A DNA stretch of 60,757 nucleotides, filler included, from Candidatus Tectimicrobiota bacterium (GTDB taxonomy: Bacteria; JACPSX01), in NCBI GenBank assembly GCA_016193065.1. It is 7 parts of 7 records of this genome, joined end to end, with 100 filler letters (N's around TTAATTAATTAA, not from the genome) between each part and the next. Parts side by side here need not be neighbours in the genome. Positions count along the whole stretch, not along the records: positions 5,144 to 26,852 come from JACPSX010000280.1; 6 more parts are not named here. The stretch is one strand, 5' to 3'. Both the position numbers and the translations under genes were made by a program. Below are positions 10,005 to 27,039 of the stretch, piece after piece (the stretch's first letter is position 1; every line of letters starts with the position of its first letter). The notes below the pieces were generated by a model. It did not search any database, was not told the origin of the DNA, and saw nothing but the letters and a program-made list of their open reading frames with translations.

Positions 10005-10017
10005 TGCCAACACCTCC

Positions 10018-11630: not shown

Positions 11631-13118
11631 ATGTCGATTCGGTTCAAAATGATTCTGGGGATCGGTTCGATCCTGCTCCTGGTGATCTTCGTCTATGCGA
11701 TCCTGGCCTTTAAGACCCAGGCAGGCCATCTGATGAACATGTCCAGACGTGAGGCGGAATTGATGGCTGCGCTGGTGGAACGGGCGATTTCCCGGGCCAT
11801 GGTAGGAGGAAAGGTCAAGGAGGTTCAGGCCACGCTCGAACGGATCGGTGAGGATCCGGAGTTGGCCGGGATCCGGATCGTGGACCCCCGGGGAATCATC
11901 GCCCGCTCCAGCAGAGCCGAGGAGGTAGGAGGACCCCTGGCACAGGGAAAACGACTCGTGGAGGGAATGGGTCCCGTCTTTGATTATCGAGAGCAGACGG
12001 TGGGGATCTTCCGTCCTATACTGAACGGCCCTGAATGTTACAAATGCCACTCGATCAACCAGAGGATTCTCGGATTCCTGAACGTCAGTGTCACCTTTCC
12101 GAGCATTGATTCGGAGCTGGCCAGGCAGTGGACGCTCATGATTCTCTCGACCGTCGCCGCTCTTGTGGTGGCTGGCGCGCTGATCGCCTTGTATTTCACG
12201 TTAGTACTGGGCCGGCGGATTGATGCCATTTCTCAGACCATGAGCCGGGTGGAGACGGGAGACCTTACGGCCAGGGTCATGGAGAACGAGCGGGATGAGC
12301 TGGGGCGCCTCGGCAAGAGCTTCAATGCCATGGTGGCCCGGCTGGCCGATGTCCGGCGGCAACTGGAGAGTCGCCACGAAGCGGAGATCCGGCGAGCTGA
12401 AGACCTGGCCTCTCTCGGCAAGATGGCGGCCGGGATCGCCCACGAAATCAACAACCCACTGGCCGGCATGCAAAACTGCGTCAGGACCCTCCTGAAGGGC
12501 ACCAGGGACAAGGAGCAGAGGATCCAGTACCTCACAATGCTCAAAGAGGGCTTGGACCGCATCGGCCGGACGGTGGGGCAACTCCTGGGTTTCGCCCGTG
12601 AATCCAAACCCCAGCTCACCCGGATCGATCTTTCCCCTCTCCTCCGACGCTCCCTGGCTCTTTTGGAGCACGAGCTGGCGGCCCGCAAGATTTCCTGCTC
12701 TCTTTCCACGGATTCCGGCCTTCCGGCTCTCCTCGCCGACCCCCACCAGATCGAGGAGGTTCTCCTGAACATCCTGATGAACGCCGTAGAGGCAATGCCG
12801 GATGGTGGAGCCCTCGCGGTCAGCACCGGCCTGCGGGAATGGGCGACGGGTCCCTTCATCGAGATCCGGGTCACGGACACGGGAGTCGGAATCTCTCCCG
12901 AGCAACTGCCGCGCATCTTCGACCCCTTTTTCACGACCAAGGAAGTCGGAAAGGGGACCGGCCTGGGGCTCTCGGTGAGCTACGGGATCATAAGGGCTCA
13001 CGGGGGTTCCATTGATGTCAAAAGCGAGTTAGGGAAAGGGACCACGTTTACGGTGGCCCTCCCCGTGGGAGGGGAAGGAGACAACCATGCGCCACCGCAT
13101 CCTCCTGGTGGAAGATGA
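11631..13118 (+). CDS. HAMP sensor histidine kinase with periplasmic heme-c motif
   Basis: 2 TM; CYKCH; AHEINNPL H-box; DTGVG, FFTTK, GTGLGL. Confidence 0.92.
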   Translation: MSIRFKMILGIGSILLLVIFVYAILAFKTQAGHLMNMSRREAELMAALVERAISRAMVGGKVKEVQATLERIGEDPELAGIRIVDPRGIIARSSRAEEVGGPLAQGKRLVEGMGPVFDYREQTVGIFRPILNGPECYKCHSINQRILGFLNVSVTFPSIDSELARQWTLMILSTVAALVVAGALIALYFTLVLGRRIDAISQTMSRVETGDLTARVMENERDELGRLGKSFNAMVARLADVRRQLESRHEAEIRRAEDLASLGKMAAGIAHEINNPLAGMQNCVRTLLKGTRDKEQRIQYLTMLKEGLDRIGRTVGQLLGFARESKPQLTRIDLSPLLRRSLALLEHELAARKISCSLSTDSGLPALLADPHQIEEVLLNILMNAVEAMPDGGALAVSTGLREWATGPFIEIRVTDTGVGISPEQLPRIFDPFFTTKEVGKGTGLGLSVSYGIIRAHGGSIDVKSELGKGTTFTVALPVGGEGDNHAPPHPPGGR

Positions 13119-14430
13119 GCCCATCCTCCGGGTGACTTTGTCCAATGACCTTTCCGAGGAAGGGTACGAGGTCACACCCGCCTCAGACGGCGCAGAGGGG
13201 CTTGCCCGGATCCGGGAGCGGTCTTTTGATGCGGCTCTCCTGGACTTAAAGCTACCGAAGGCAGATGGGCTCAGCTTGCTCCAGAGCTTTAAGGCCGCAA
13301 ATCCCCAGGGGCTCGCGATCATGATGACCGCCTACGGCACCATCCAGTCGGCCATCGCGGCCATGAAAGCAGGGGCCACGGACTACCTCCTGAAGCCTTT
13401 CCCCACGGACGAGCTCCTCGTGCTTCTGCGTGGCCTGCTGGCCCAGCACGCCGTTCTGTCGGGAGAGAGAACTAAGCTGCCCGGACTCCGGCAGTTCGGA
13501 GATCTCATTTACGCCAGCGAAAAGATGGCCCGGGTCTGCGACCTCATTGCTACCGTGGCGCGCAGCGATGCCACCGTTCTGATCCAGGGAGAAACAGGCA
13601 CGGGTAAGGAGCTGGTCGCTCGTGCCATCCATCAACAGAGCGGACGGCGAGCCCAACCGCTGATCCCCGTGGCTTGCGCTGCCATCCCCGAGACCCTTCT
13701 GGAAACGGAGCTGTTCGGCCATGAGAAGGGCGCCTTCACGGGAGCCATTCGGGAGCGCAAGGGGCGCTTCGAACTGGCCCATCGGGGGAGCCTCTTTCTG
13801 GACGAAGTCGCCGATTTAGGACCTGCAGTTCAAGCCAAGCTTCTGCGGGTGCTCCAGGAAAAAGAGTTCGAGCGGGTCGGAGGGACGCAGACCATCAAGG
13901 CCGATGTCCGGCTCATCTCCGCCACCCGCAAGCGGCTGGAAGATGAAGTCGTGGCGGGCCGGCTGCGCGAAGACCTTTTCTATCGCCTCAAGGTGATCAC
14001 CGTCCTGCTTCCCCTACTGCGGGAGCGCAAGGAGGACATCCTCCCGCTGGCTGCGCATTTCCTGGAGAAGTACAGTAGACCACTGGGGAAAGACGTCCGT
14101 GGGTTCAGCTCGGAGGCTTGCCGCCAGCTTCTTGCCTACCACTGGCCCGGCAATATCCGGGAGCTGGAGGCCACCGTCCAGCGGGCAGTCACTTTGACGA
14201 AAAACACGATTCTCACCGCGGAGGACCTTTCCTTTGAGGTCGGTTTGACTCCCACCGACAAGACAAACGTCCCGGCTCACCCCCTCACCGACACGGTCCG
14301 GGAGGCCGAGCGGCGATACCTCCAAGAGGTCCTGCAAAGTGTCGGAGGCCAGCGGAAGCGGGCCGCGGAGATCCTGGGGATCAGCCGGAAGACCCTCTGG
14401 AAGAAAATGAAGCTGCTCGGCATGGAATAA
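13087..14430 (+). CDS. Sigma54-dependent response regulator (NtrC family)
   Basis: REC (VEDE, LLDL), GETGTGKE, GAFTGA, WPGNIREL, Fis HTH. Confidence 0.95.
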   Translation: MRHRILLVEDEPILRVTLSNDLSEEGYEVTPASDGAEGLARIRERSFDAALLDLKLPKADGLSLLQSFKAANPQGLAIMMTAYGTIQSAIAAMKAGATDYLLKPFPTDELLVLLRGLLAQHAVLSGERTKLPGLRQFGDLIYASEKMARVCDLIATVARSDATVLIQGETGTGKELVARAIHQQSGRRAQPLIPVACAAIPETLLETELFGHEKGAFTGAIRERKGRFELAHRGSLFLDEVADLGPAVQAKLLRVLQEKEFERVGGTQTIKADVRLISATRKRLEDEVVAGRLREDLFYRLKVITVLLPLLRERKEDILPLAAHFLEKYSRPLGKDVRGFSSEACRQLLAYHWPGNIRELEATVQRAVTLTKNTILTAEDLSFEVGLTPTDKTNVPAHPLTDTVREAERRYLQEVLQSVGGQRKRAAEILGISRKTLWKKMKLLGME

Positions 14431-14468
14431 CCCCAGTCGATCTCTCTCATTTCCCCTCTCGGGAGCGC

Positions 14469-14515
14469 GTTACCGTACGGTAACACTTGTCCCCTCCATG
14501 TTCCCGATCGGTAAC
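14469..14515. promoter_or_regulatory. Two enhancer (UAS) palindromes GTTACC-N4-GGTAAC
   Basis: Perfect GTTACCGTACGGTAAC at 14469-14484 and GTTCCCGATCGGTAAC at 14500-14515, 31 bp apart. Confidence 0.75.
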
Positions 14516-14693
14516 TGTTGTACCCGATCCCTCCCGACCGCCCCTTGGCTGTAAGAGCCCTCTTTCTCCACCCTTTTCCCCGGTTCATCCAACTGGTACG
14601 GCCCTTGCTGTGGGGAAAAAGGGCGGGACAAAGGCAGGAATGTCCCGAAGGGATAGGAGTGATGATTTTCGCAGCATCCGCCTTGATGAAACG

Positions 14694-14709
14694 GGGCACG
14701 GGCGATGCT
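14694..14709 (+). promoter_or_regulatory. Sigma54 -24/-12 promoter
   Basis: GGGCACGGGCGATGCT, GG-N10-GC; about 36 nt upstream of ATG 14746. Confidence 0.75.
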
Positions 14710-14745
14710 GCTGCCGGTTTCCAGTAACCCGATGGAGAGAATTCC

Positions 14746-15033
14746 ATGAAACAAAAGATGGTTTCCATCTGCCTGGCGGGAATTTTTGTGTCCGGGCTGA
14801 TTTTCATCCCGTGTCTGGCGCAGGCCGCGAAGACCCAAGAGACCTCCTTCATGAATCTCCTGGGCCAGGCGCAGAAGGAAGAGAAAAAGCCGGAGAAAGC
14901 ACCGAAGAAAAAAGCAGGGGAGGTAGAAAAGAAGAAGGAAACCCTGGAAAAGGAAAAGAAAAAAGACAAGGAAGAAAAGGAGAAGGAAAAGGAAGAAGAG
15001 GAAGAGCCCAGCTTGAGGCCATCGAAGTGCTGA
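14746..15033 (+). CDS. Exported K/E-rich small protein with C-terminal Cys
   Basis: Signal peptide (AQA), charged tract, ends EEEEEPSLRPSKC; GGAGAG RBS. Confidence 0.75.
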   Translation: MKQKMVSICLAGIFVSGLIFIPCLAQAAKTQETSFMNLLGQAQKEEKKPEKAPKKKAGEVEKKKETLEKEKKKDKEEKEKEKEEEEEPSLRPSKC

Positions 15034-15059
15034 TGATTTCTTTACCGTAAACCCCGGGC

Positions 15060-15245
15060 TCAACCTTAATCCGAAAAAAAACCAACCTGGTTGATCCGTG
15101 CCGTTGGCCCGCAGGTCCTGACACCCGCCAGGCGGGTACCGGGTCGCCTCCTCGAACCGCGCTCCGTCACCCTGACGAGGGTCCCACTTTCGCGCGGCTC
15201 TACGGAGGCATCCCGGGTACCCACAAAGTGGGTGCCCACCCGCAG
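15060..15245. mobile_element. MITE-like element copy 1 (right end missing, two mini-hairpin insertions)
   Basis: Near-identical to 21446-21600. Confidence 0.7.
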
Positions 15246-15272
15246 GCGAACAACGAAAAGGAGTTGAATCAG

Positions 15273-17339
15273 ATGAGCAAAGGCAACCGAGTCTCCCGAC
15301 GAAGCATGCTGAAATGGTCCATGGGCTCTTTGGCCGCCCTTCCCTTTGCCGGCAGCCTTTTAAGAGCGGGACAGGCTGCCGCTCAGTCGGGCGCGCAAAG
15401 CGTCCCCCCAGGCAAAAAAACCAAGGTTCTCGTGCTTGGTTTGGACTCCTGCGACATGGAGCGCCTATTGGAGTGGGTGAAGGAAGGAGAACTCCCCACT
15501 TTTCAGAAACTGATTCAATCAGGTGCCTACGGGACTTTCGAAAACATTTTCCGCGGGATGTCCGTGGATGCCTGGGCCGCATATTTGACCGGAGTCGGGC
15601 CCGGCCAGAACAATTTCTTCGGGGCTCACCCCTGGAAGGTTTACGACAAGTGGGCCAGCCAGACTTCGGGGATCAATCGCTTTTATCGAATGCACGTGGC
15701 CACGATCCCCTTCATGCTGGCGGAGGCCGGGGTTAAGGTGGGAATGTGCGGGTGCGCCATGACCTGGCCACCGGAACGCTTGCAGGGCGGCTTCATGATG
15801 TCGGGTAAGGGATCTCCCGGGCTGGGCGACGATCCGGACTGCAAAGGGCACATTTACTACACCCAGGAGAAACACGCAGCAGCCAAGCCGCTCAAGACCC
15901 AAATTGAATTTGTGGATGGCAATGTAAATACCTCCATCCGTTATCACGGCATGGAAGTTCTCCTCCACCTCACCCTGAACTCACTCACCAACACGGTGAC
16001 CATTGCCTACGAAGATCAGAAGGTGACCTTGAGGGAAGGCGAGTGGTCCGGCTACATGCCCATCAAGTTTCCGAACGGCCGCCGCGGTGTGATCCGCTGG
16101 AAACCCGAGCGCCTGGATGCCGCCGGCGGAGAGCTTCAGCTTTACCGCTACAAGCTTCTGCAGGACCCCAGCGCGGAGCTGGACCACGACCCGATCAATT
16201 CCTTCTTCGACGGAGCCTGCGTGCCTACGGACCAGTGGACCTATCCTGCCGCCCTGCAGAGAGAAGTCTTCGACGCCGTGGGATATTACCGGACACCCAA
16301 TCTCCCCTTCGAGTATGACTATTCCTCATTTGTCGGGTTTGTCCAGGAAGAAGAGACCCTTCTCGAAGACGCCTATGACGCAACGCGAGAGCAGAACAGG
16401 ATCGTGAAGTGGCTCCTGCAGAACAAGGAATGGGACTTCTTCTGGTTCTCCAACATGCCCTACGACCGTCTTAACCACAACATGGTTCGGATCAAGGGTA
16501 ATCCGGACTGGTCCCCGGAGTACGAGAGAAAGTACGGCAACGGGAAGGTGATGAAGGACTTCACCAGGTTCATCGACAGCGAGCTGGCCGACCTCATGAA
16601 GATCCTTCCCAGGGACACCTACGTGGTGATCATCTCCGACCACGGCTGGGGTCCGGTGGAGGCCGAGTTCCAGCCCAACTCCTGGCTCAAGGAGTTGGGG
16701 CTCCTGCACGTGAAGCCGGAGGTGGAGGGCAAGACCCGGCGCTACTACTACCCGGAGGATATCGACTGGAGCCGGACGAAGGCCTTTTCCGCGGACAATC
16801 CGGGGATCTTTATCAACCTGAAGGGGCGCGAAGAGAACGGAATTGTCCGGTACGCCGAGTACGAAGGGCTCAGAGACACCATTATCGAAGAACTCAAAAA
16901 GGTCAAACATCCCGATGGCAGCCCGTTCATCTACAAGGCCGACCGGGTGGAGAACATTTACCCCAAGGGGAGCTACGGATGGTATGCGGGGGACATCCAG
17001 TTCTGCGGCACCCGGGACTCCTCCGGCTACAAGCTGCCGGGGCCCAATGACGGCCTCTACCAGATCAACTGGACGGGGTTCGGGTACCGGGACAGGATAT
17101 GGGATCATCCCCGCAGGCACTTCACGGCCTGGCACGGCAACGCGCTCACCACGTTCGTCATGACGGGCCCGGGCGTGAAGAAGAACGCCGATGTCTCCGA
17201 GAACGGCCACATGTTGAACGTCTTCCCGACCATCATGCACATCTACGGCCTGGTGCCGCCGCCGAATTTCGAAGGGCGCATCATGTATGAGGTATTCGAC
17301 CCGAGCTCCCCGCTGGCCAAGAAAAAGGAAGCAGTATGA
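15273..17339 (+). CDS. Tat-exported alkaline phosphatase superfamily (type I phosphodiesterase-like) hydrolase
   Basis: SRRSMLK Tat motif; VLGLDS, G.LPTF.KL..G.YG, S..AW..YLTG, DRLNH, ISDHG, INLKGRE..G.V. Confidence 0.88.
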   Translation: MSKGNRVSRRSMLKWSMGSLAALPFAGSLLRAGQAAAQSGAQSVPPGKKTKVLVLGLDSCDMERLLEWVKEGELPTFQKLIQSGAYGTFENIFRGMSVDAWAAYLTGVGPGQNNFFGAHPWKVYDKWASQTSGINRFYRMHVATIPFMLAEAGVKVGMCGCAMTWPPERLQGGFMMSGKGSPGLGDDPDCKGHIYYTQEKHAAAKPLKTQIEFVDGNVNTSIRYHGMEVLLHLTLNSLTNTVTIAYEDQKVTLREGEWSGYMPIKFPNGRRGVIRWKPERLDAAGGELQLYRYKLLQDPSAELDHDPINSFFDGACVPTDQWTYPAALQREVFDAVGYYRTPNLPFEYDYSSFVGFVQEEETLLEDAYDATREQNRIVKWLLQNKEWDFFWFSNMPYDRLNHNMVRIKGNPDWSPEYERKYGNGKVMKDFTRFIDSELADLMKILPRDTYVVIISDHGWGPVEAEFQPNSWLKELGLLHVKPEVEGKTRRYYYPEDIDWSRTKAFSADNPGIFINLKGREENGIVRYAEYEGLRDTIIEELKKVKHPDGSPFIYKADRVENIYPKGSYGWYAGDIQFCGTRDSSGYKLPGPNDGLYQINWTGFGYRDRIWDHPRRHFTAWHGNALTTFVMTGPGVKKNADVSENGHMLNVFPTIMHIYGLVPPPNFEGRIMYEVFDPSSPLAKKKEAV

Positions 17340-19528
17340 GGGAAAGATCCGGTGATGGCGGCATGAAGCCCTCTCGGCGCGAATTTCTGAAGCTCGGAGG
17401 CCTGGCAGTCGGCAGCCTGTCCCTGGCAACGGGACCCGAGGGGGTATTCGAAATCCCGATTAAGGAGAAGTTGGAGCCTCCCCACTTTGACCGGGAGGTG
17501 AACGGGATCTGCCCTTACTGTCAGACGCGCTGCACGACCAAGGTGCAGTTGAAGGGCGACCGAGTGGTGAACGTGTACGGGAATCAGGACAATTTCTGGA
17601 CGGGTGGCTCCGTGTGTCCCAAGGGACAAGCCATGGTGGAGCTCACGTACAGCCCTCACCGGCTTCTCCATCCGCTGATTCGCGACGGCCAAAGCTGGAA
17701 GAGAATCTCCTATTCCCAGGCTCTGGACGCCGTGGCCGCGAAGATAACCAGGATCAAGCAGGAACATCCGGAAGACTATTCCCATCGCCTGGCGTTGTTT
17801 GCCCCGCTCTGGGATTGCCATGAGGCGGAGCTGGCGGCTCAGATGACACTGCACATGGCGGGATTCCCCGACATCTGCTCCCCCGGAGACGCCTGCATCG
17901 GCAACCTCTCCACGGCTCTCAACATGTGCCTGGGGGAGCCCACGGCCCCCACGACCATTAACGAGCTGGAAAATGCGGAACTCGTGGTGCTGGTGGGCGC
18001 CAATGTGGCCGTCACCTATCCAATCTATGTGCAATGGCTGCGGCGGGCTCGCGAGAAAGGGGCCCGGATTCTCTATTTTGATTTCCGCGCCACCCCCACG
18101 ACGAACCAGGTCGACGAACAGGTCATTCTCCGGCCCGGCACCGATGGCGCCCTTTTCCTTGGCATGATCCGCGTGCTGATCCAGGAGAATTTGTACGACC
18201 GAAAATTTGTCAAGGACCATGTCAACGGGTTCGACGAACTGGCCCGATCGTGCCGGGAGTACACCCCGGAAAAAGTCGGGGAAATCACCTGGGTCCCTCC
18301 GGAAACGATCGTGGGCATGGCCCGCATGCTGGCCAAAAGCAAAGGAACCATCATCTGGATCGGGGGGGCAATTTCCCGTTACACGAACGCCATGCAAACT
18401 GTGCGAGCCATCGTAGGCCTGCAAGCCATCACGGGTCAACTGGCCGGTCCGGGGAAAGGGATCATCCCGTTTCAAGGAGGAAAGCCCCCGATCAGCAAAG
18501 AGTTCGAAGAGAAGCTCAGAGCACCGGACCTGCCCGAGAGACTTCACGTCCGCAAGGTCGTCTATAACATGAATCAGGGTGATGTGGACCTGCTCCTGCT
18601 CAGCTCCAGCTTTCGCCGATATCCCGACTCGAACCGAGTCAAGAAAGCCATTCAAAAGGTGAGGTTCGTGGTCTATCGGGGCTTTTTCATGGATGAGGAG
18701 GCCGATCTGTCCCATCTCATCATCCCATCCACCATGGGATTCGAGTCCGCGGGTTCCATGTACGGACTGCAGCGCCAGATCGTGTGGAGGGAGCAGGCCG
18801 TAGAGAGTTGCGGTGAGACGGTGCCGGATTGGCGTTTCTACACCGATTTGGGCAAAAGGCTCCTGGGTGAATCCTATCCGAAAATCGCGCAGGTGGACGA
18901 CATTTACGAGCTCCACAGGAGCTACACCCCCACCTGGAAGGGTTTAACCATAGAAAGGCTGAAGAAAAATCCGACCGGAATTTCCTGGCCATGCCCGTCC
19001 GAGGATCACCCTGGAACTCTGGGAACCTTGTACCGGGACAATCGGTTTCACACTCCCCACGGCAAGGTGGAGCTTCTTTCCAAAGTGCTCGGCCCCATCC
19101 GCTGGACCGAACCGAAAGGAAGCCCGCTGGAAAATCCGAACGAAGAGCAGAAACAGAGGAATAACTTCCCCCTGATCTTCACCCAGGGAAAGGTGGCCCA
19201 TCACTGGCAGCACATGACCAACTGGTCGGATTACATGGCCCAGTTTTCCGAGGGCAACGTCGTGCAGTTGAACCCCGCGACCGCTCGCGAATATGGCATC
19301 CAGAACGGAGATTGGGTTCACATAGAAACCCAGGTGGGAAAAATCAAGGCCAGGGTTCGGCTTACGGAGGGCATCCTTCCTGGGGTTGTCTGGACCCCTT
19401 CTCATCTTGGCTCAAAGAGTCCCTTTGCCGGAAACCGGGGGGAAAACACCAACGAGATCACGCCTAACTACTGGGATAAGGTGGCTGCCCAGTTTAACGG
19501 CTTTGGTTGCCGTCTTAGGAAGGCCTGA
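17336..19528 (+). CDS. Tat-exported molybdopterin oxidoreductase catalytic subunit (DMSO reductase family)
   Basis: SRREFLK; CPYCQTRC...CPKG; RPGTDGAL..G; C-terminal Mo-bisPGD binding domain. Confidence 0.92.
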   Translation: MRERSGDGGMKPSRREFLKLGGLAVGSLSLATGPEGVFEIPIKEKLEPPHFDREVNGICPYCQTRCTTKVQLKGDRVVNVYGNQDNFWTGGSVCPKGQAMVELTYSPHRLLHPLIRDGQSWKRISYSQALDAVAAKITRIKQEHPEDYSHRLALFAPLWDCHEAELAAQMTLHMAGFPDICSPGDACIGNLSTALNMCLGEPTAPTTINELENAELVVLVGANVAVTYPIYVQWLRRAREKGARILYFDFRATPTTNQVDEQVILRPGTDGALFLGMIRVLIQENLYDRKFVKDHVNGFDELARSCREYTPEKVGEITWVPPETIVGMARMLAKSKGTIIWIGGAISRYTNAMQTVRAIVGLQAITGQLAGPGKGIIPFQGGKPPISKEFEEKLRAPDLPERLHVRKVVYNMNQGDVDLLLLSSSFRRYPDSNRVKKAIQKVRFVVYRGFFMDEEADLSHLIIPSTMGFESAGSMYGLQRQIVWREQAVESCGETVPDWRFYTDLGKRLLGESYPKIAQVDDIYELHRSYTPTWKGLTIERLKKNPTGISWPCPSEDHPGTLGTLYRDNRFHTPHGKVELLSKVLGPIRWTEPKGSPLENPNEEQKQRNNFPLIFTQGKVAHHWQHMTNWSDYMAQFSEGNVVQLNPATAREYGIQNGDWVHIETQVGKIKARVRLTEGILPGVVWTPSHLGSKSPFAGNRGENTNEITPNYWDKVAAQFNGFGCRLRKA

Positions 19529-20208
19529 TGGCCCGTGAAATGGAACGACTGATTGTTTTCCACGCCGATCGGTGCATCAGTTGCCACTCCTGCGAGATTG
19601 CCTGCCAGATGGAGAACGATGCTCCTCCCGGCCTACGCCTGCGATGGGTGCAGGACTTTGAAGAGGGGTATTTCCCCGGGGCGAGGATCTATTTCATCTC
19701 AGCGGCCTGTTTCCACTGTGACGACCCCTCTTGTGTCGCCGGATGTCCGGCCGGAGCGCTGATCCGGCGCAACGACGGCACGGTGGTCCATCTTCGGGAC
19801 AAATGCATTGGCTGCGGATACTGCATCCAGACTTGCCCTTTCCATGTGCCGAAATTCAGCCCATCCCAGCATACCGCGCGCAAATGCAGCTTTTGCACCC
19901 AGCGTATCGATCGGGGGCTGGAACCGGCATGCGTGGCCAAGTGCGCCACGAAAGCTCTCGTTTACTACCCGGATGGGAAGCCTCCCGTTCCTCTCCAGGC
20001 CTATGGAACGCCGGAAAAACTCCACATGGTCTACAAGCTGGATCGGAACCCGGAAAATTACCAGCTACCGCATCCCGTGCCAGGCAATGAGGTGGCCGCA
20101 ACTCAGTTGTGGAAGTGGCTGATCGGCTTGATCCCCGGTTTTGGGGTGGCCCTCTGGTTATTTAAAAATGCCGCAGATTCGAATCAGGACGAGGTTCGCC
20201 ATGACTGA
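19528..20208 (+). CDS. 4Fe-4S electron-transfer subunit with C-terminal TM
   Basis: CISCHSC, CFHCDDPSC, CIGCGYC, KCSFC motifs. Confidence 0.92.
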   Translation: MAREMERLIVFHADRCISCHSCEIACQMENDAPPGLRLRWVQDFEEGYFPGARIYFISAACFHCDDPSCVAGCPAGALIRRNDGTVVHLRDKCIGCGYCIQTCPFHVPKFSPSQHTARKCSFCTQRIDRGLEPACVAKCATKALVYYPDGKPPVPLQAYGTPEKLHMVYKLDRNPENYQLPHPVPGNEVAATQLWKWLIGLIPGFGVALWLFKNAADSNQDEVRHD

Positions 20209-21091
20209 AGCAACCTGGGGATCGGCAATCGCCTTTGACCTGTTTCTGGCCGGCCTGAGTGGGGGGTCATTTCTCTTGGCAGCTTTGGCTTCCGACCAGG
20301 ACGAGATAGGCTGGGAGGCCTGCGGCAGGACATCCTCTCTTCTAGCCCCGGCAGCCCTGGCCGCCGGTATGGCCATGCTACTCCTGGACCTGGGCCAGAA
20401 ACACCGGTTCTGGCAGCTCCTGGTGCGCTTCAACCCGGTTTCCCCCATGTCCATCGGAACCTGGCTTCTTGCGGCTTTCGCCGTTATTTGTGTGGTGTTC
20501 GCCCTTTTCTGGCTGCCGGAGGATTGGAGGCGGCGCATTCCTGTCGTGGGGAAATGGCCTTTCTGGAGCGACCGGACGTGGCGCGGAAGGTTCGGAATCA
20601 TCGGCGTGCCGTTTGCCGTGGCCGTCACGATTTATACGGCTGTCCTGTTGTCCGTAACTTCCATACCCCTGTGGCGGAATTATCTGCTGCCGCCCGTTTT
20701 CTTCTTTTCCGCCCTGGCCACGGGTTTTTCCGGCGGGGTTCTTCTGAGCGTTCCCTGGCCAGCGAAAATCCGGACAAAAGATCTTTCCCGCCCGCTGGAA
20801 TTCATCCGGAAAGTCTTCCGGATCATTCTCCCATCTCTATTGCTGACCTTGGTGTTCTTCATGGCTCTCGTCCCCGGCAAGGTGGAGGAGAAAAACGTTT
20901 TCGGAGCGTTGGTAGGAGGGTGGACGGGAGCGCTGTGGGGGGGAGGAATCGGTTTAGGGATCGTTTTGCCCTTGATTCTCTGCCTCTCCAGGAAGCGCTG
21001 GTCGATTCTCCGTGCCGTCACCATTTTCGCCACAGTCCTGATCGGAGGACTGATTTTGCGCTGGGTTCTCGTGGTGGCCGGTCAGATGTAA
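20201..21091 (+). CDS. NrfD/PsrC membrane anchor
   Basis: W...IA..LFLAGLSGG, LDLG...RF, SPMSIGTW, P..F..SAL.TG, GG.ILR. Confidence 0.88.
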   Translation: MTEATWGSAIAFDLFLAGLSGGSFLLAALASDQDEIGWEACGRTSSLLAPAALAAGMAMLLLDLGQKHRFWQLLVRFNPVSPMSIGTWLLAAFAVICVVFALFWLPEDWRRRIPVVGKWPFWSDRTWRGRFGIIGVPFAVAVTIYTAVLLSVTSIPLWRNYLLPPVFFFSALATGFSGGVLLSVPWPAKIRTKDLSRPLEFIRKVFRIILPSLLLTLVFFMALVPGKVEEKNVFGALVGGWTGALWGGGIGLGIVLPLILCLSRKRWSILRAVTIFATVLIGGLILRWVLVVAGQM

Positions 21092-21124
21092 GCCACGAAG
21101 TTCCCGTATGAGGAGGTCAGGTCA

Positions 21125-21445
21125 ATGAAACGGAGTGGAAACCTCAAAGTAGCAGCGATTGGAATCCTGGCTGTGTTTCTCGCGTTCAGCCTGTTCTCTT
21201 CCGCCGCGGCGGAAGAGCGCAAGATCAAGACGCTGGATTTGAACAAGGCTACGGTGGAAGAGCTGGCAAAAATCCCGGGCCTCAACAAACAACTGGCTCA
21301 GGCCATCGTGAATTACCGCGACGAGACGGGGGACATCCATGCGCTCACCGAGCTTCTCAAGATCAAAGGCATCAACCGGGATCTTTTGAGAAAAATTCAA
21401 CCTTACGTGAATCTGGAGTCCGTGGGAGGCGATTGCACATGCTAG
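21125..21445 (+). CDS. Exported helix-hairpin-helix (ComEA-like) protein with C-terminal CxC
   Basis: Signal peptide; LDLNKATVEELAKIPGL, IVNYR...G, LLKIKGI; ends GGDCTC. Confidence 0.85.
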   Translation: MKRSGNLKVAAIGILAVFLAFSLFSSAAAEERKIKTLDLNKATVEELAKIPGLNKQLAQAIVNYRDETGDIHALTELLKIKGINRDLLRKIQPYVNLESVGGDCTC

Positions 21446-24400
21446 CCCTAATCCGAAAAAAAACAACCTGGTTGATCCGCGCCGTTGGCCCGCAGGACCT
21501 GTCGCCGGGTCGCCTCCTCGATCCGCGCTACGTCACCCTGACGAGGGTCCCACTTTCGCGCGGCTCTGCGGAGGCATCCCCGACGCCACCCGCGGGCCTC
21601 AGCCGGATGACCCCGACAGAGAATTTCGGATTGAGGTTAGTCCTCTCCCCTTCGCGATGGGTCCTGCGCTTTGCAGTGAATGCGTTTCTGGCAGGCTCTC
21701 TGATTTTTCTTGTGTGCCCGGCCACGGCGTCTGCGGCGGCGGAGACCGTCAGGGGCCTTTCCCCGTCCGAGGATGCAACCTACATTCCCGACCTGGGCGG
21801 GCTGCAAAACAAAAAAATGCATAACCATTTCGGGCAGGAGCGGGATCTGCAGGAATGCGTGGTGCTGCGGGGGTCCAGCGTGAAAGAGGGGAAGGTCTCC
21901 ATCCCTCCGGGAGGTTTGTTCTATGCTTCCAGCTCGCCGGCAACCGCCCGGCCGCTGGTCCGGGACCCTTTTCTCGTCCTTGGTGAGGAGGCCTACCTCG
22001 TAAAGCTCACCGTTGATAGAGCAGTCAAGACCGATTTCAAGGTCGACGTGCGTCAAAAGGCCCTCCTGGATCCCTCCGGGTATCGCCTCTGGTATGAATA
22101 CGCCACCGATCATTACGGGAAACCCTACGGGGAATTCGCCCTCATCTCCCCATCCGGCGGCTGGCCCGTGGAAATGCCGATCTCCACGTCCTTTCCGGGG
22201 CCCATGAAGGCTCTGGAAACGAAAAGACCCGCCGGCATCACCCCGCAGTCCAGAGATTTCTATCTCTCGGATACCTATCTGTACGGCGCCACAACGCTGA
22301 CCGCCAAGAAAGTCGACGAGAAGCAGGCTCTCTTCTCCCGGATCGAATATCCGGTGATCAAAGAAGCGGTCTTCTCCCTGGACCGCCCCTCGATCCTCAA
22401 AGTCCGCCAGGGGACCTTTCGCTGGTATTGGGGCAAAAGGATCTACGCGTTCCGAGAAGCGGAAGGAATCCGGGTCGAGGTGCGCAACTGGACCGGGAAA
22501 AAAATCCTGGCCCAAAAAATGATCCCACCCGCCACTTCCCAGCAATACAAGGTCCTTCAGCAAGACGATCTGAGCCTCACCCTGGACGATCTGCACATCG
22601 AAATCGTGGTGGATCCTTCCTGGTACAAGGGGTCGGACTATGCTCCATGGGTGACCGGTGTCCCCTATGACTGGAAGCAGGGAACCGTATCCTTCCGGAT
22701 CTACGATGACCTGGTTCGCCTGGAGGACGGCCAACCCTGGCCCAACGATCCCCGCTACCTCGTCCGCCTGGAAGCCGACCTGATGAGCGGGTTTCTCAAG
22801 AGAATCACCCTGGAGAATCAGGAAGCGATCATCCTGGATAAGGATCACCCGACCTACGCCGGCCCGGTGAAATACTCCGAGATCTGGGACCGGAGATTCT
22901 TCAACCTGGTCCTTGGCAAGATTGACAAGGATGTGGTGAAGAACTACTACCTTCGCGACTCCATGCTTCGCCGCACCGATAATTTGATTCTCTGGCCCGA
23001 AGGCCGCACAAACGTGGACTTTTTCATCGGGAAGAGCGAGCTGGTCGTCTCCGTGATGGAGGATACCTTCCTGATGCGGCTCGCGGATCCAACCTACGGG
23101 GTCCCCGTCGTCCCCTCGAAGTTCGCCTCTTATCCCCCTGTCATTCCGACGGCCCGTTGGTTCGCGCCGGACCCCACCTGCGCCTTTGTCCCCAAGATGA
23201 AAGGTCTGGTGCGCAAGTTCGTAAGGAACCGGAAGGGGGAGAGGCTGACGGCCGCCGAGGCCATCGTGATCCGCGGCAGCTACGTCGATTATCGGAAAGG
23301 GAAGATCATCATCCCTCCCGCCGGGCTGTACTACTCCTCGCGAAACAACCGCAACGTCCGCCCCCTGGCCGGAGAGTCCTTTTACCTCCTGGGGAAGCAA
23401 ATCTATCTGCTGAACAACAAGAGCTATCTCGTGGTCAGAAAGGATTTCAGGATCGACAAGTGGGATCAGTTTCCCATGGGGGACGGAAACCTCCTCTTCT
23501 GGCAGGACCTTCCCCTGGGAGACGGCACCAAGGCTTTGCGATACACGGACTCGGGATTCCTCTGGGATCGCCCGTTGGCTCTGTTGCGCGTCACCAAGTA
23601 CTCGGGGAATACCTGGGGGGCCAATCTGTTGATGGCGCCGGGTCTGAAGAGCTATCCGGACCACTCCAGCGACCGCTCCGAGCCGAAGAACTCGGCCGAG
23701 CCCTTCCATTACTCCATGCCCCCGTTTGCCGCCGAGGGTGCGACCTATCTGATTCCGCGCTGGGTCACACCGAACATGGTGGAAGTGGCGGACATGGGGA
23801 CGCCGGGGATGGATTGGATTCTCGTATCCTACCAGGAAGCCGAGAAAAAAACGGTATCCGTGGGGGGCAGTTTCGCCTTTGCAGACTTCCAGCTCCATCT
23901 ACGCAAGATGGATCCGGGAGGCAAGACCATCCATTTTGCCGTCCTGGACACATCCGGTGTTCTTTTGGACACGAAAGTTCTGGGCCCCATCACAGGCGAG
24001 GTCTACGCCACCCTGCCCCAGTACGGCCCTTCCCGGGAGAAGGTCATGTTCCAGTTCCAGAACATCCACCTGGAGATCGAGGTCCCGGTGAATTTCCAGG
24101 CCGGCAAAGCGACCGTGTATGTGACCGGGGGCGTGATGAAGCTCGAGCGCGATAAGCCCTGGCCCGGGGACAAACGATTCGTCATGCGGCCGGATGTCTG
24201 CGGCCACTGCTACATGCTCAACGAATTCATCCTCGATAATCCGGAGCCCATCGTTCTCGACGCCGAAAATCCCGTCTACGAGGGGCCCGAAGGATATTTC
24301 AAGATCGTGGTCGATGATTTCGACGGGGAAGCGATCAATGCCTGGCACATCGAGGACAGCGAGGGGAGGAAAACTCCCAATCTGGCCGAGTACCCCCGCA

Positions 24401-24504
24401 ACAACCTGGATGTCATGGTGGGAGTCAATGGGACGACGGAGAGCTTTCTCCGGAAAACCCTGCTGGAGCGCCTGTCTTACAGGGAGAAGTGGCGCTTGAA
24501 GTAA
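21439..24504 (+). CDS. Large exported protein of two homologous halves; CGHC in second half; in-frame MITE near N-terminus
   Basis: GGAGG RBS + ATG 21439; signal peptide after the MITE; repeated motifs in both halves. Confidence 0.8.
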   Translation: MLALIRKKTTWLIRAVGPQDLSPGRLLDPRYVTLTRVPLSRGSAEASPTPPAGLSRMTPTENFGLRLVLSPSRWVLRFAVNAFLAGSLIFLVCPATASAAAETVRGLSPSEDATYIPDLGGLQNKKMHNHFGQERDLQECVVLRGSSVKEGKVSIPPGGLFYASSSPATARPLVRDPFLVLGEEAYLVKLTVDRAVKTDFKVDVRQKALLDPSGYRLWYEYATDHYGKPYGEFALISPSGGWPVEMPISTSFPGPMKALETKRPAGITPQSRDFYLSDTYLYGATTLTAKKVDEKQALFSRIEYPVIKEAVFSLDRPSILKVRQGTFRWYWGKRIYAFREAEGIRVEVRNWTGKKILAQKMIPPATSQQYKVLQQDDLSLTLDDLHIEIVVDPSWYKGSDYAPWVTGVPYDWKQGTVSFRIYDDLVRLEDGQPWPNDPRYLVRLEADLMSGFLKRITLENQEAIILDKDHPTYAGPVKYSEIWDRRFFNLVLGKIDKDVVKNYYLRDSMLRRTDNLILWPEGRTNVDFFIGKSELVVSVMEDTFLMRLADPTYGVPVVPSKFASYPPVIPTARWFAPDPTCAFVPKMKGLVRKFVRNRKGERLTAAEAIVIRGSYVDYRKGKIIIPPAGLYYSSRNNRNVRPLAGESFYLLGKQIYLLNNKSYLVVRKDFRIDKWDQFPMGDGNLLFWQDLPLGDGTKALRYTDSGFLWDRPLALLRVTKYSGNTWGANLLMAPGLKSYPDHSSDRSEPKNSAEPFHYSMPPFAAEGATYLIPRWVTPNMVEVADMGTPGMDWILVSYQEAEKKTVSVGGSFAFADFQLHLRKMDPGGKTIHFAVLDTSGVLLDTKVLGPITGEVYATLPQYGPSREKVMFQFQNIHLEIEVPVNFQAGKATVYVTGGVMKLERDKPWPGDKRFVMRPDVCGHCYMLNEFILDNPEPIVLDAENPVYEGPEGYFKIVVDDFDGEAINAWHIEDSEGRKTPNLAEYPRNNLDVMVGVNGTTESFLRKTLLERLSYREKWRLK
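21446..21640. mobile_element. MITE-like element copy 2 (195 bp including duplicated TAG)
   Basis: Terminal IRs CCCTAATCCGAAA / TTTCGGATTGAGG; TAG on both sides; second copy at 15060. Confidence 0.78.
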
Positions 24505-24530
24505 CCCATTGCCGAAGGGGAATTCGCCTT

Positions 24531-25700
24531 ATGGAACTGGCCGTGGAAAAAGAACCCATTCCGGAACAGGCCGCGCCCCGGGGAAGATCCATCTGGAGGG
24601 CGCTCCCCAGCTTTCGGGAAGCGCGCCCGGGCCTTCTGGCCATGCTCGTCATCGCCCTCTTCTGCGAGCTGCCGGGAATTCCCTGGCCCTTCACCATCCA
24701 CGCTCTGTTGAAATACATCGATGAGGTCCTGCCTCCGATTTACGGGAAAGGGCTTTTCGTAGACCTTCTCCACTTCAACTATGTGCTGATTGCTTTGGTC
24801 GCGGGGATCGTGATTCGAAACGTCATCGGGGTTCCCAGGAGCTGGGAGCCCGGCTTGAGCTACAGCTCCGTGTTCATGAACACCGCCATCGTGATGCTGG
24901 GCTCCCAGTATCTGCTCCGGGATCTGGTGCGCATCGGAACCGTGGCGGTGGCGCTCATGGTCGTCTTTGTTTTCGGGGCCGCGGCTCTGGTGATTTTCCT
25001 GGGCCGCCTCTTCAGGGTAAACGACGCCCTCACGGGGGTCCTGGCGGCCGGATTTTCCTCCTGCGGAGTCTCCGCCTCCGTAGCCGCCGCGCCCATCGTG
25101 GGCGCCAGGAGCGAAGAGGTGACCTACTCCATCGCCACCATTCTCTCTTTCGGTCTCCTGTGCCTGTTCACCCTTCCCTACATCGGCAGAGCCCTGGGGA
25201 TGGAGGATTTCGCCTACGGCATCTGGTCCGCCGTGGGGATTTTAAACTCCGCCCAGGTCATCGCTTCAGGCTTCATGTACAGCTTTGACGCGGGCAAAGT
25301 GGCGGGTTTCGTCAACATCGCCCGGGTCGTCCTGATCCCCGCCGCCGTCCTGTTCATCGGCATCCTGATCCTCTCCCGGCAGGTTACCCAGGCGAAGATC
25401 AACAAGATGCAGGTAATCCGGGAGAAGTTTCCGGTGTTCGTCTTCGGATTTTTTGCTCTCTGGCTGGCCCGCTGCCTGGGCATGTTCCCCCGCCCCGCCG
25501 TGGAAGCGATGAGCAGCGTCATGACCTGGTTCTTCACCCTCTCCTTCGTCGGGCTGGGGCTCCAGACCAAGCTCGGGGATCTGCGGAAAGCAGGCCTTCA
25601 CGGAGTCATGATCGGCTACTTGGCCGGAGTGGTCAAAATCCTGCTTTCCCTGGCCGCCATCATGCTCCTGCTGAAGCTCGGGATGCTGCGAAGAGGTTGA
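24531..25700 (+). CDS. YeiH family putative sulfate exporter
   Basis: Multi-TM; IVMLG, G.S.CGVSA..A.API, QVIA.G, FVFGF, GLGLQT. Confidence 0.85.
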   Translation: MELAVEKEPIPEQAAPRGRSIWRALPSFREARPGLLAMLVIALFCELPGIPWPFTIHALLKYIDEVLPPIYGKGLFVDLLHFNYVLIALVAGIVIRNVIGVPRSWEPGLSYSSVFMNTAIVMLGSQYLLRDLVRIGTVAVALMVVFVFGAAALVIFLGRLFRVNDALTGVLAAGFSSCGVSASVAAAPIVGARSEEVTYSIATILSFGLLCLFTLPYIGRALGMEDFAYGIWSAVGILNSAQVIASGFMYSFDAGKVAGFVNIARVVLIPAAVLFIGILILSRQVTQAKINKMQVIREKFPVFVFGFFALWLARCLGMFPRPAVEAMSSVMTWFFTLSFVGLGLQTKLGDLRKAGLHGVMIGYLAGVVKILLSLAAIMLLLKLGMLRRG

Positions 25701-25703
25701 GAG

Positions 25704-25874
25704 ATGGCTGAAACGAACGAACAAGAAACGGGTACGGTCCAGGACCTGAAAGCCGTCGAAGCCGACGCCATCGCCAAGTTCCAGCGGCACCGCGTGGACG
25801 ACTACGTGGCCATCCTCTTAGGAGTGGGATCAGCTCTGATTCTGTGGCTGTTCCAGCTCATGGGTTTTTACTGA
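25704..25874 (+). CDS. 56-aa single-TM protein (not in ORF track)
   Basis: MAETNEQ...DDYVAILLGVGSALILWLFQLMGFY*; fills the gap between YeiH and Usp. Confidence 0.7.
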   Translation: MAETNEQETGTVQDLKAVEADAIAKFQRHRVDDYVAILLGVGSALILWLFQLMGFY

Positions 25875-25875
25875 A

Positions 25876-26418
25876 ATGAACTCTCGCATCCTCGTCGTGG
25901 TGAACTTGAACTTGGAAGATTCCTTTCTGGAGGCCGTTCTGGATTGGGCCCGGAAATCCGCCGGCAGCGTCATGGTGCTGCAGATCTTGACTTCCGACCT
26001 TTACCACTACGGGCATAACGACCTCCTGGCCGGCGGTCGCGCCAAGGCCGACTTCTTGCTCCACATCCGCCGGGAGGTCCTGGAAAAGGGGGAATCCCAG
26101 GCGGCCAGACTCCTGGCGGGAGCGAGAACCCGGGGGATTCAGATCCGTCTCATCCCCGTCGAGACCGAGAACCCGGCCGCGGCGGTCATCGCCGAGGCCA
26201 AGAGAGGCTATGACCTCGTTGTCGTTCCGAAAGAACCCAGGAGGCTATTGCCCCTCTTCCAGAAGTCATTGTTCCACGAGATTCGCGGGAAGGTGGACTG
26301 TGAGGTCACGGAAATGGACAATCCGCCCTCCCTAAAAGAGCGCAGATCTCCACAGAATCTTATCATCAGCGAAAGGAGGGAAAGGAGGGATGTGTATGGT
26401 GACCTGAAGAAAAAATGA
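25876..26418 (+). CDS. Universal stress protein-like
   Basis: RILVVV, P...VI.EA..GYDLVVV pattern. Confidence 0.7.
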   Translation: MNSRILVVVNLNLEDSFLEAVLDWARKSAGSVMVLQILTSDLYHYGHNDLLAGGRAKADFLLHIRREVLEKGESQAARLLAGARTRGIQIRLIPVETENPAAAVIAEAKRGYDLVVVPKEPRRLLPLFQKSLFHEIRGKVDCEVTEMDNPPSLKERRSPQNLIISERRERRDVYGDLKKK

Positions 26419-26457
26419 AAGCTGGGGTTGGGGGGCATTAGACACGGAGGTAAGGAG

Positions 26458-26852
26458 ATGAAAAGATCAAATCGATTTCTGCTTATAGTCCTTGTGGCTA
26501 TGGCAATTCCATTGATCTTCTCCGCTGCGGCTTTTGGGTGGCCCTCGGTCTACCCGACGGGGACCACCATCCACAATCCGGAGAAGGCGTTCAACGGCTA
26601 CACGTTGATCGCTCCCCTGGACGCGGGCAAGCCCACGGATGAGTTCTACGCCAACCCCGGAACCGCGTATCTGCTCGACATGAACGGAAACGTGGTCCAT
26701 CAGTGGAAGCTCCCCTTCCCGCCGGGGCTGCACGCCAGGCTGCTGCCGAACGGGAACCTCTTGTTCGCCGGCAGGAGCGGCAAGGTGGATCCTCCCGATC
26801 GGCCCGGCGTGGGTAAGTACCCCATGGGCGGCGCCGCCGGGTGGCTCATCGA
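26458..26852 (+). CDS. Aryl-sulfate sulfotransferase (ASST) family, 3'-partial
   Basis: Signal peptide; PSVYPTGTT...PEKAFNGYTL; LLDMNGNVVHQW; LLPNGNLL. Confidence 0.8.
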
Positions 26853-27039
26853 NNNNNNNNNNNNNNNNNNNNNNNNNNNNNNNNNNNNNNNNNNNNTTAA
26901 TTAATTAANNNNNNNNNNNNNNNNNNNNNNNNNNNNNNNNNNNNNNNNNNNNCCCTTCCGCCCGCTTCATCGTCCCGCCCGCCTTCCCCCTCTAACCCCG
27001 CAGGAGAGGGAGAACATGAGCATGATCGAGCAAATTACC

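Follow-up and report, generated by a model that had tools for sequence, protein, structure and literature searches.

Introduction

SoxY, DsrC and Sud carry sulfur on cysteine (Cys) residues, and 3'-phosphoadenosine 5'-phosphosulfate (PAPS) reductase forms an S-sulfocysteine on its C-terminal Cys, which is resolved to sulfite by a dithiol. Here we describe an operon found in a 60.7-kb window of DNA from a draft genome of a Candidatus Tectimicrobiota bacterium, the window being the whole stretch that was analysed. The operon belongs to a conserved periplasmic system under sigma54 control, found in sulfite- and sulfate-reducing bacteria of the Desulfobacterota type. Its products include an arylsulfate sulfotransferase (ASST)-like protein, two kinds of small exported proteins ending in Cys (class A, with a PSKC tail, and class B, with a CxC tail), a large exported protein that we call BIG and a YeiH-type membrane transporter.

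ASSTs work by a ping-pong mechanism through a sulfo-histidine (sulfo-His), and their physiological role is given as unknown in the accessible part of a study of these enzymes (PMC13426309). The same part reports that some ASSTs have arylsulfatase activity, with water as the acceptor, that the aryl sulfotransferase (AST) genes of enterobacteria and others adjoin dsbA or dsbL/dsbI, and that the Escherichia coli AST needs its disulfide (PMC13426309). As far as the accessible portions of the sources go, yeiH is the main sulfite-resistance determinant in Salmonella (bioRxiv 10.1101/2025.07.27.662810), and sulfate reducers of sediments poor in sulfate can draw their sulfur from sulfate esters (PMC6129605).

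A sequence-only reading of the window had proposed that the operon encodes a Sox-analogous pathway built from non-Sox parts. The likeness to the Sox system (SoxYZ, SoxXA, SoxB, SoxCD) lies in the periplasmic location, in the proposed sulfur chemistry on a Cys of the flexible C-terminal arm of a small carrier, and in a hydrolase and a molybdoenzyme as possible partners. In contrast, Pfam and NCBIfam scans of all 13 window proteins found no Sox family, be it of the SoxY, SoxB or SoxXA type. The carriers of the present system are helix-hairpin-helix (HhH) or disordered proteins that end in PSKC or CxC, whereas SoxY ends in GGCGG; the hydrolase belongs to the alkaline phosphatase (AP) superfamily (PF01663) and is not of the SoxB type; and the ASST, BIG and YeiH are without Sox counterpart. 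The proposal is thus retained for a Cys-carrier system without Sox families, but not for the molybdoenzyme and the hydrolase as fixed parts, since both are optional.

Three other described systems are close in some respect. The Sud protein of Wolinella is, like the carriers considered here, a small periplasmic Cys protein and possible substrate carrier, but the carrier of the cluster is not rhodanese-like. CysH (PAPS/APS reductase) acting with thioredoxin offers the chemistry that we propose below, in which an S-sulfocysteine on a C-terminal Cys is converted to sulfite via a dithiol; there is, however, no homology, the cluster acts in the periplasm, a sulfate ester used via ASST would take the place of the nucleotide donor, and the respiratory chain would supply the reductant. 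Finally, in the assT-dsbL-dsbI and astA-dsbA loci of enterobacteria and Campylobacter, the gene of a PAPS-independent aryl sulfotransferase is linked to periplasmic CxxC redox proteins, as described in the accessible part of PMC13426309. In those loci a thioredoxin-fold Dsb protein folds the AST, whereas here a 950-aa beta-repeat CxxC protein accompanies ASSTs that lack an invariant Cys, and the cluster adds tail carriers, YeiH and respiratory modules.

Results

Gene content and conservation of the operon

Eleven genes, all on the + strand, are found downstream of the promoter, on a contig that covers positions 5144-26852 of the window. The first one (14746..15033) encodes the class A protein, of 95 amino acids (aa), with a signal peptide, a K/E-rich linker, an acidic run and the C-terminus EPSLRPSKC. 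It is followed by the genes of an AP-superfamily protein exported by the twin-arginine (Tat) route (15228..17339, probable start 15273; PF01663 60.8 bits, PF00884 26.6 bits; SRRSMLK), of the Tat-exported catalytic (Mo) subunit of a bis-pyranopterin guanine dinucleotide molybdoenzyme (17336..19528; PF00384, PF01568, PF04879; SRREFLK; Cys ligand in PGDACIG), of a four-cluster 4Fe-4S (FeS) subunit with a C-terminal helix (19528..20208), and of an NrfD-type membrane quinone-interacting subunit (20141..21091; PF03916, 141 bits). Twin-arginine motifs were read by eye. Then come the class B protein, of 106 aa (21125..21445; signal peptide, HHH_3 domain, C-terminus GGDCTC), BIG (21607..24504) and YeiH (24489..25700; PF03601, 172 bits for a cut-off of 24.5). 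Three genes complete the operon as far as it can be read: a 56-aa protein with one C-terminal helix (25704..25874), conserved after YeiH in clusters of the Mo type; a Usp-like protein (25876..26418), conserved after the 56-aa gene; and the first 141 aa of a beta-propeller protein that is ASST-like and exported (26428..26852), an open reading frame (ORF) that stops there because the contig ends at 26852.

Families, ORFs and motifs thus recover every gene that the sequence-only reading had listed, in a single orientation. The Usp assignment is kept in a weaker form, as a Usp-like gene is present but its match, at 20.5 bits, stays under the Pfam cut-off of 24.

Using the window's proteins, we mapped 7 genome loci and 80 metagenome loci, 71 of which are distinct by the last 600 nucleotides (nt) of BIG, so that the families do occur together elsewhere, as had been anticipated. 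The yeiH gene directly follows that of BIG in 64/64 metagenome loci with at least 900 nt past BIG (an automatic count of 62, to which L050 and L092, with overlapping hits, were added), and in 6/6 genome loci with sequence there. Seventeen loci, 14 of them distinct, offer a wide context, that is at least 8 kb upstream and at least 5 kb downstream; ASST-like and HhH genes are present in 14/14 of the distinct ones. The invariant core is composed of ASST, the PSKC-tail protein, BIG, YeiH and the CxC-tail protein.

The rest of the cluster varies. Among the 14 distinct wide loci, the redox module consists of Mo and NrfD proteins in 5, of a Mo-HhH-FeS set in 1 and of a tetrahaem cytochrome c only in 7, none being seen in the last one, and an AP-superfamily gene is present in 5. 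These counts make the Mo/FeS/NrfD trio and the AP hydrolase exchangeable accessories. The molybdoenzyme and the hydrolase, which figured in the name first given to the operon, are therefore dispensable. Three layouts are observed. The first one, to which the window belongs, is HhH(PSKC)-AP-[ASST]-Mo-FeS-NrfD-HhH(CxC)-BIG-YeiH-56aa-Usp-[ASST]; the second is ASST-ASST-HhH(PSKC)-BIG-YeiH-56aa-Usp-Mo-HhH(CxC)-FeS-cytochrome b; and the third combines ASST/HhH(PSKC) with BIG-YeiH-HhH(CxC)-tetrahaem cytochrome c, the cytochrome having four CxxCH motifs.

The names attached to relatives are those of metagenome-assembled genomes of Syntrophales, Desulfobacteraceae and Deltaproteobacteria, and of one bin each of Acidobacteria and Bathyarchaeia. 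Among the host genomes, 4/5 have a DsrA that exceeds its cut-off and 3/5 such an AprA. In locus L001, the cluster is directly followed by dsrAB, by a CobB/CobQ-like amidotransferase gene, which from its position we take to be dsrN, and by dsrMK-like genes; the genome of L001 has no AprA over cut-off. The cluster of L032 likewise adjoins dsrAB, as judged from dsr matches. Two peculiarities of L001 are recorded here: its yeiH is split over three frames, and the neighbouring dsrA match (G001:C4:967076-968203) contains one in-frame TGA, which could be a sequencing error, the sign of a pseudogene or a selenocysteine (Sec) codon.

The Cys-ended tails

The tails were counted over the 80 metagenome loci, which contain 67 complete HhH or K/E ORFs, duplicated loci included, and one more that is cut by a contig end. 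Twenty-six of the complete ORFs end in PSKC, 40 in C[T/N]C and one without Cys, and the genome loci show the same pattern; the terminal Cys, whose conservation in homologs was a prediction, is thus found in 66/67. TAA, TAG and TGA all occur directly after the terminal Cys, so that the tail ends are true C-termini. A Sec read-through after the terminal Cys was considered and is ruled out by the TAA and TAG stops.

In an alignment of class A proteins, L-x-P-S-K-C is invariant in 17/17 and is preceded by an acidic run. Most of these proteins have an HhH domain, which is gone in those of the window and of L021, the signal peptide, the linker and the tail being kept; this suggests that it is the tail that carries the class A function. 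An ASST gene is followed by a PSKC gene, with a gap of less than 130 nt, in 17 loci (13 distinct), and wherever an AP gene occurs, a PSKC gene directly precedes it. The class B gene, for its part, is always beside or inside the redox module (Mo-HhH-FeS-cytochrome b, HhH-cytochrome c or NrfD-HhH). A complex prediction for the ASST of L023 with the neighbouring PSKC-tail protein returned a score of 0.00, that is 'no answer'.

The HHH_3 domain, by which a ComEA-type HhH DNA receptor might be recognised, scores 66 bits, but the score on TIGR01259 (ComEA-type) is 55 bits for a cut-off of 152, no competence genes are found nearby, and the class A protein of the window has lost the HhH and yet kept the tail.

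BIG and its Cys/Sec site

BIG is an exported tandem-repeat, all-beta protein of about 965 aa, to which Pfam and NCBIfam assign no family. The longest ORF (21433-24504, 1023 aa) probably starts upstream of the real start, ATG 21607, since homologs align only from about residue 85-90 and a signal-peptide-like stretch, recognised by eye, comes past that ATG. The two halves are homologous (23% identity, E 2e-32), which bears out the internal duplication first noticed. The CGHC motif (24199..24210), in contrast, is not duplicated: it is found in the second half only, and the first half has EADLMSG at the equivalent position.

BIG relatives were searched among 5.8 billion proteins and 8000 candidates were scored, each entry being a cluster at 90% identity. 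At least 213 of these candidates have E<=0.001. The best 120 of the 213 are mostly of about 950 aa, none of them has a Pfam domain, and their source names, where given, are 'hypothetical protein'. The motif V-C-G-H-C-Y is invariant in 31/31 aligned full-length sequences, which are 44-65% identical.

The AlphaFold model of BIG (pLDDT 81.3, pTM 0.78) is nearly all beta strand. In spite of its CGHC motif, the protein has no thioredoxin-type Pfam domain and its model no thioredoxin fold. Its closest relative by fold, and the only plausible one, is DUF1608 from a Methanosarcina acetivorans S-layer protein (3u2g; Foldseek probability 1.00). With VIA-align, the second repeat of BIG matches 3u2g over 224/274 residues at an rmsd of 6.7 and a Z of 9.5, which is only modestly over the stated background. 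The Methanosarcina S-layer protein MA0829, whose domain layout we take to be a tandem DUF1608 (presumably PF07752), resembles BIG in being a tandem repeat with halves of similar beta fold. It differs in that BIG is bacterial, bears a Cys/Sec motif, is encoded in a redox operon and has no family match to it at the sequence level, no Pfam match of BIG to DUF1608 being found at E<=0.01. A search of the ESM Atlas with BIG gave no usable match.

A position at which Cys and Sec alternate usually marks a redox-active nucleophile. In a 401-genome sample of the phylum of L001, 12 genomes matched. Apart from full-length forms, in 5 genomes half-length relatives (about 500 aa) of the second repeat of BIG are encoded by genes that have exactly one in-frame TGA each. 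When read through, this TGA aligns with the first Cys of CGHC (RPDT-U-STC in 4 genomes, YI-U-PLC in 1) and homology continues beyond it. selB is over its cut-off in 5/5 of these genomes, and in 4/5 of the genes a hairpin begins about 21 nt past the TGA. An aligned UGA, Sec machinery and a hairpin, the features by which bacterial selenoproteins are recognised, thus come together in the half-length relatives only, the BIG of the window having Cys. A small exported low-complexity protein ending in APD(E/Q)GC is encoded just before 4/5 of the Sec-type genes, and the minimal unit of the BIG family seems to be a Cys-ended small protein together with a Cys/Sec beta protein.

The RPDT-U-STC relatives are those of L026, L027, L028 and L029 (genomes G061, G332, G193 and G308, respectively). 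The small exported protein upstream of them has AGNCxIGGE near its N-terminus; a TonB-dependent receptor adjoins in 2 of these loci and a sigma54 activator in 3. Beside the half-length relative of L027, the minus strand (L027:10796-15210) encodes a 1131-aa protein in which molybdopterin oxidoreductase and class V aminotransferase are fused, along with a histidine methyltransferase of the EgtD-like kind (PF10017); the two might form a thio- or seleno-histidine pathway.

Sulfotransferases and YeiH

The 141-aa ASST-like fragment of the window has, on its own, no Pfam family, and was assigned from its 35-44% identity to the ASSTs of other clusters. Its L021 ortholog, 43% identical, is an ASST at 80.8 bits (cut-off 24.2). 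The ASST named by the sequence-only reading is thus supported by its orthologs, but not by a Pfam match of its own in the truncated window gene. The cluster neighbours are true members of the ASST family, with PF05935 scores of 74-112 bits in L021, L022, L023 and L025; up to three paralogs are present per cluster, and those of L023 reach 112, 105 and 89 bits for the beta-propeller domain (PF05935/PF14269).

A profile of the cluster ASSTs retrieves the solved sulfotransferase 9kf4 (E 8e-14), with the H-x-N, R and H motifs aligned. A single-sequence search of the PDB gave no match, hence no direct alignment to the E. coli enzyme (EcAST). EcAST combines a catalytic His with a sulfuryl-binding set of His, His-x-Asn, Arg and Thr, the residues being His436, His252, His356, Asn358, Arg374 and Thr501, according to the accessible part of PMC13426309. 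The motifs HHD, DW-x-H-x-N, R, H-x-x-H and NGNT are invariant in 16/16 cluster ASSTs, in the order of the active-site residues reported there for EcAST. No Cys is invariant in these 16 aligned sequences.

The YeiH of the window is well over the PF03601 cut-off (see above) and scores 84 bits on TIGR00698, under the subfamily cut-off of 232.6. It is therefore a member of the family and not a close YeiH ortholog. The association of YeiH with sulfur oxyanions, part of the initial proposal, agrees with the sulfite resistance described in the accessible part of the Salmonella preprint (bioRxiv 10.1101/2025.07.27.662810).

The molybdoenzyme

PsrABC and PhsABC resemble the cluster in that their Mo subunit is exported by the Tat route, has a Cys ligand and is joined by a 4Fe-4S subunit and a membrane anchor; this anchor is NrfD or cytochrome b, each of which is found in clusters. 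They differ from it in two respects: the Mo subunit of the window reaches only 243 bits on the PhsA model (cut-off 694), and about half of the clusters have a tetrahaem cytochrome instead of the Mo module. On this model, ordinary proteins of the Psr/Phs kind from the same phylum reach 337-593 bits, versus 243 for the cluster subunit, and no protein exceeds the PhsA cut-off in 121 genomes of the phylum. By its sequence, the Mo subunit does not look like a typical Psr/Phs protein.

The same subunit scores 344 bits on the Fdh-alpha model TIGR01591 (cut-off 666) and 278 on NasC, and the closest enzymes of solved structure are of the FdhF type (E 4.5e-75). Aligned with FdhF 7qv7_S, it shows Cys-Ile where that enzyme has Cys-His, and a Gln at the position of the catalytic Arg. 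Among the cluster loci, PGD-x-C-[I/V]-G is present in 22/22, and Gln stands at the Arg position in 19/21. As the catalytic His and Arg are lacking, the Mo subunit is not a formate dehydrogenase. No family cut-off being reached and the formate dehydrogenase residues being missing, it appears to lie outside the characterised non-sulfur clades, in keeping with what had been predicted; the Mo subunits appear to form an uncharacterised clade of periplasmic molybdoenzymes.

Promoter, regulators and other features of the window

Directly upstream of the operon, on the + strand, are the genes of a sensor histidine kinase (11631..13118; HAMP, HisKA and HATPase_c in Pfam) and of an NtrC-type response regulator/sigma54 activator (13087..14430; Response_reg, Sigma54_activat at 231.7 bits, HTH_8). 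Related clusters are also flanked by homologous regulators. The periplasmic part of the kinase has a CYKCH motif, of the haem-c-attachment type, at residue 136, and the kinases of L023 and L021 have SBP_bac_3 and PAS domains in place of it.

The sigma54-type promoter, TGGTAC-N5-TTGCT (14594..14609, + strand), and the paired upstream activating sequences (UAS) noted at the outset were both found again. The promoter motif has 1 match in the window, and at least 1 match is obtained in 6/100 shuffles. The UAS are two 16-bp palindromes of the form GTTNCC-N4-GGNAAC (14469..14515, + strand), GTTACCGTACGGTAAC at 14469 and GTTCCCGATCGGTAAC at 14500; this pattern has 2 matches in the whole window, and at least 2 in 0/100 shuffles. 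The pair likely represents binding sites of the activator. The palindrome motif was absent from the 31 other loci searched, and a general scan for promoters and terminators gave no signal exceeding shuffles.

A direct repeat of about 150 nt lies between genes of the operon (copy 1, 15064..15214; copy 2, 21446..21580; + strand). Its copies are 90-96% identical, each directly past a Cys-tail gene and ahead of a large gene, and it is predicted to form a long hairpin (-68 kcal/mol, z -2.8). It has no Rfam match and no third copy in the window, was not found in L021 or L001, and may be a genome-specific mobile or regulatory element. Over 14400-26852, the sole Rfam match is a sub-threshold miRNA, taken as chance. 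The structure model of the AP-superfamily protein, from a 9-row alignment, has a mean pLDDT of 42.8, too poor for a fold search, and phmmer found no match for this protein in the PDB.

Divergently from the operon, the minus strand encodes at 6235-10013 two membrane-anchored GcvH-like (PF01597) proteins, and after them a protein with 4Fe-4S clusters and another one of the NrfD type. The set, unusual in joining lipoyl-protein-like and NrfD/FeS parts, may be another sulfur or redox module. The window as a whole is not one molecule but strings together at least seven draft-assembly contigs. The contigs are joined by N44-TTAATTAATTAA-N44 spacers (5044-5143, 26853-26952, 30671-30770, 39292-39391, 48750-48849 and 52216-52315), across which features cannot be read, and a single run of 32 N is present at 41689-41720. 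On the contig that follows the operon, two genes in tandem (27084-27569 and 27700-28320) code for glycine-rich RNA-binding proteins of the RRM type; they are near-identical in their coding parts, and the in-frame stretches preceding each are also alike. DNA of the window is present in 4 DNA runs of one groundwater study, RNA runs being absent from those listed.

Discussion

Our results show a conserved, regulated and exported gene set, with two kinds of Cys-ended tails, a Cys/Sec protein, YeiH and swappable redox modules, in DsrAB-bearing anaerobes. The co-occurrence of the families, the terminal Cys, a Mo subunit that stays under the cut-off of every characterised family and the link of YeiH to sulfite make it fair to speak of a Cys-carrier pathway from non-Sox parts. 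Three points go beyond the sequence-only reading: BIG, with its Cys/Sec site, is the central new component, ASST belongs to the core instead of trailing it, and the operon is truncated.

We tentatively propose that ASST loads the sulfuryl group of an ester on the carrier Cys, that a thiol/selenol relay fed by the respiratory module frees sulfite, and that YeiH moves this sulfite; we regard this scheme as plausible, although still short of probable. In a first step, the ASSTs would take the sulfuryl group from aryl or other organic sulfate esters via sulfo-His and pass it to the terminal Cys of class A, which would become an S-sulfocysteine. The Cys/Sec centre of BIG would then split the S-SO3 bond by reduction, in the manner of thioredoxin acting on PAPS reductase, yielding sulfite and a disulfide. 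Reducing equivalents would be brought from the respiratory module to BIG by the C-x-C tail of class B, and YeiH would carry sulfite over the inner membrane to DsrAB. In some variants, the AP-superfamily enzyme encoded next to the class A gene would act on the same tail or broaden the range of esters. The whole chain, from ASST to the carrier Cys, the Cys/Sec enzyme, sulfite, YeiH and DsrAB, might amount to an ATP-independent dissimilatory 'organosulfate respiration' bypassing Sat and Apr, an extension that we consider doubtful.

Several observations weigh against this proposal. Half-length BIG relatives occur without ASST or YeiH, two of them beside a TonB-dependent receptor, so that the BIG family is not tied to sulfuryl chemistry as such, and some of them have C-P-x-G-H, keeping only the first Cys of CxxC. 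The Mo subunit is more like formate dehydrogenases and Nas than PhsA, as its scores indicate, and is therefore tied to sulfur by gene context only. If a hydrolase took part, the sulfuryl group would be lost as sulfate, and, with AprA in 3/5 hosts, most of them need no bypass. Reducing sulfate esters to sulfite calls for a donor of low potential, and menaquinol acting via NrfD would need the help of the membrane potential. The accessible part of PMC13426309 does not report a thiol as acceptor of the sulfuryl group of an ASST. Finally, YeiH protects Salmonella from sulfite, probably by export, according to the accessible part of the preprint (bioRxiv 10.1101/2025.07.27.662810), and this fits an oxidative or detoxifying role equally well.

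In such an oxidative, Sox-like role, sulfite exported by YeiH would attack a disulfide of BIG or of the carrier to form S-sulfocysteine, and an ASST-like or AP enzyme would remove the sulfuryl group, as sulfate or onto an acceptor. The Mo/FeS/NrfD or cytochrome module would re-oxidise the thiols, the electrons going to the quinone/cytochrome pool, and the outcome would be sulfite detoxification or energy from disproportionation. The same conserved parts are used as in the reductive proposal, and the sulfitolysis of disulfides is spontaneous chemistry, but direct periplasmic sulfite dehydrogenases work without carriers. Although a hydrolase beside the carrier gene would be sensible as a sulfate-releasing step, it is lacking in 9/14 distinct wide-context loci, and the presence of up to three ASST paralogs would be easier to reconcile with many small-molecule donors than with a single protein as substrate. 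The arylsulfatase activity of some ASSTs and the effect of YeiH on sulfite stress, both cited above, also agree with this route, which on balance we judge unlikely.

Handling of a metalloid or chalcogen (Se, Te, As) would assign the binding of the element to the Cys tails and the Cys/Sec site, and the reduction of its oxyanion to the Mo enzyme or the cytochrome. C-terminal Cys and CxC tails suit soft ions, the tail of MerA being an example, the Mo subunit is uncharacterised, and half-length BIG relatives are found beside TonB-dependent receptors. One distant half-length relative is named from Selenihalanaerobacter shriftii, a selenate respirer, but this protein is without CxxC. As ASST and YeiH are part of the core, dsrAB adjoins the cluster in two loci and no ars, sel or ter families are found in the neighbourhoods scanned, this explanation is improbable.

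The gene linkage of ASTs to dsb genes and the invariant CGHC could alternatively point to a Dsb-like maturation of ASST, BIG being a PDI-type oxidase, the CxC protein a shuttle and the respiratory module an analogue of DsbB or DsbI. The E. coli AST needs its disulfide (PMC13426309, accessible part), but no Cys is invariant in the 16 cluster ASSTs aligned, and BIG is modelled as nearly all beta. Furthermore, a Sec in the active site speaks for an enzyme that acts on a substrate, and YeiH (64/64), the invariant PSKC tail and a molybdoenzyme as a means of electron disposal would be left unexplained, which makes such a maturation system very improbable. A structural envelope layer, with BIG forming a lattice as S-layer proteins do and disulfides linking it to HhH anchors, agrees with the DUF1608 fold match and with the tandem repeat of the Methanosarcina protein, but the Sec at the site, the close linkage to redox modules, transporter and ASSTs, the two-component sigma54 control and a Z little above background leave it hardly any credit.

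The sequence-only reading had not recognised the gene combination as a described pathway, and we likewise found no description of it in the main texts of the open-access literature, supplementary tables excluded. With the features of Sox, formate dehydrogenase and Dsb systems absent and core proteins without family model, the cluster is rated, on sequence grounds, as new as a system, its function being predicted. It brings together a large unannotated protein family with a Cys/Sec centre (at least 213 clusters at 90% identity), two exported tail-protein families, each with an invariant motif at the C-terminus, and an uncharacterised periplasmic molybdoenzyme clade.

Soils, peat, sediments and groundwater contain a large pool of sulfur in the form of organic sulfate esters, and the accessible part of PMC6129605 presents their use by anaerobes for energy as known only via hydrolysis to sulfate. 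A carrier-based route from ester to sulfite, if true, would alter the energetics of sulfur respiration in low-sulfate habitats. Organosulfate respiration, if true, would give the ASST family its long-sought physiological role, and would suggest that the linkage of ASST and Dsb genes reflects coupled thiol chemistry and not protein folding alone. Whichever way the pathway runs, the cluster provides a testable physiological context for ASSTs and YeiH, and it points to a so far unrecognised sulfur processing outside the cell membrane.

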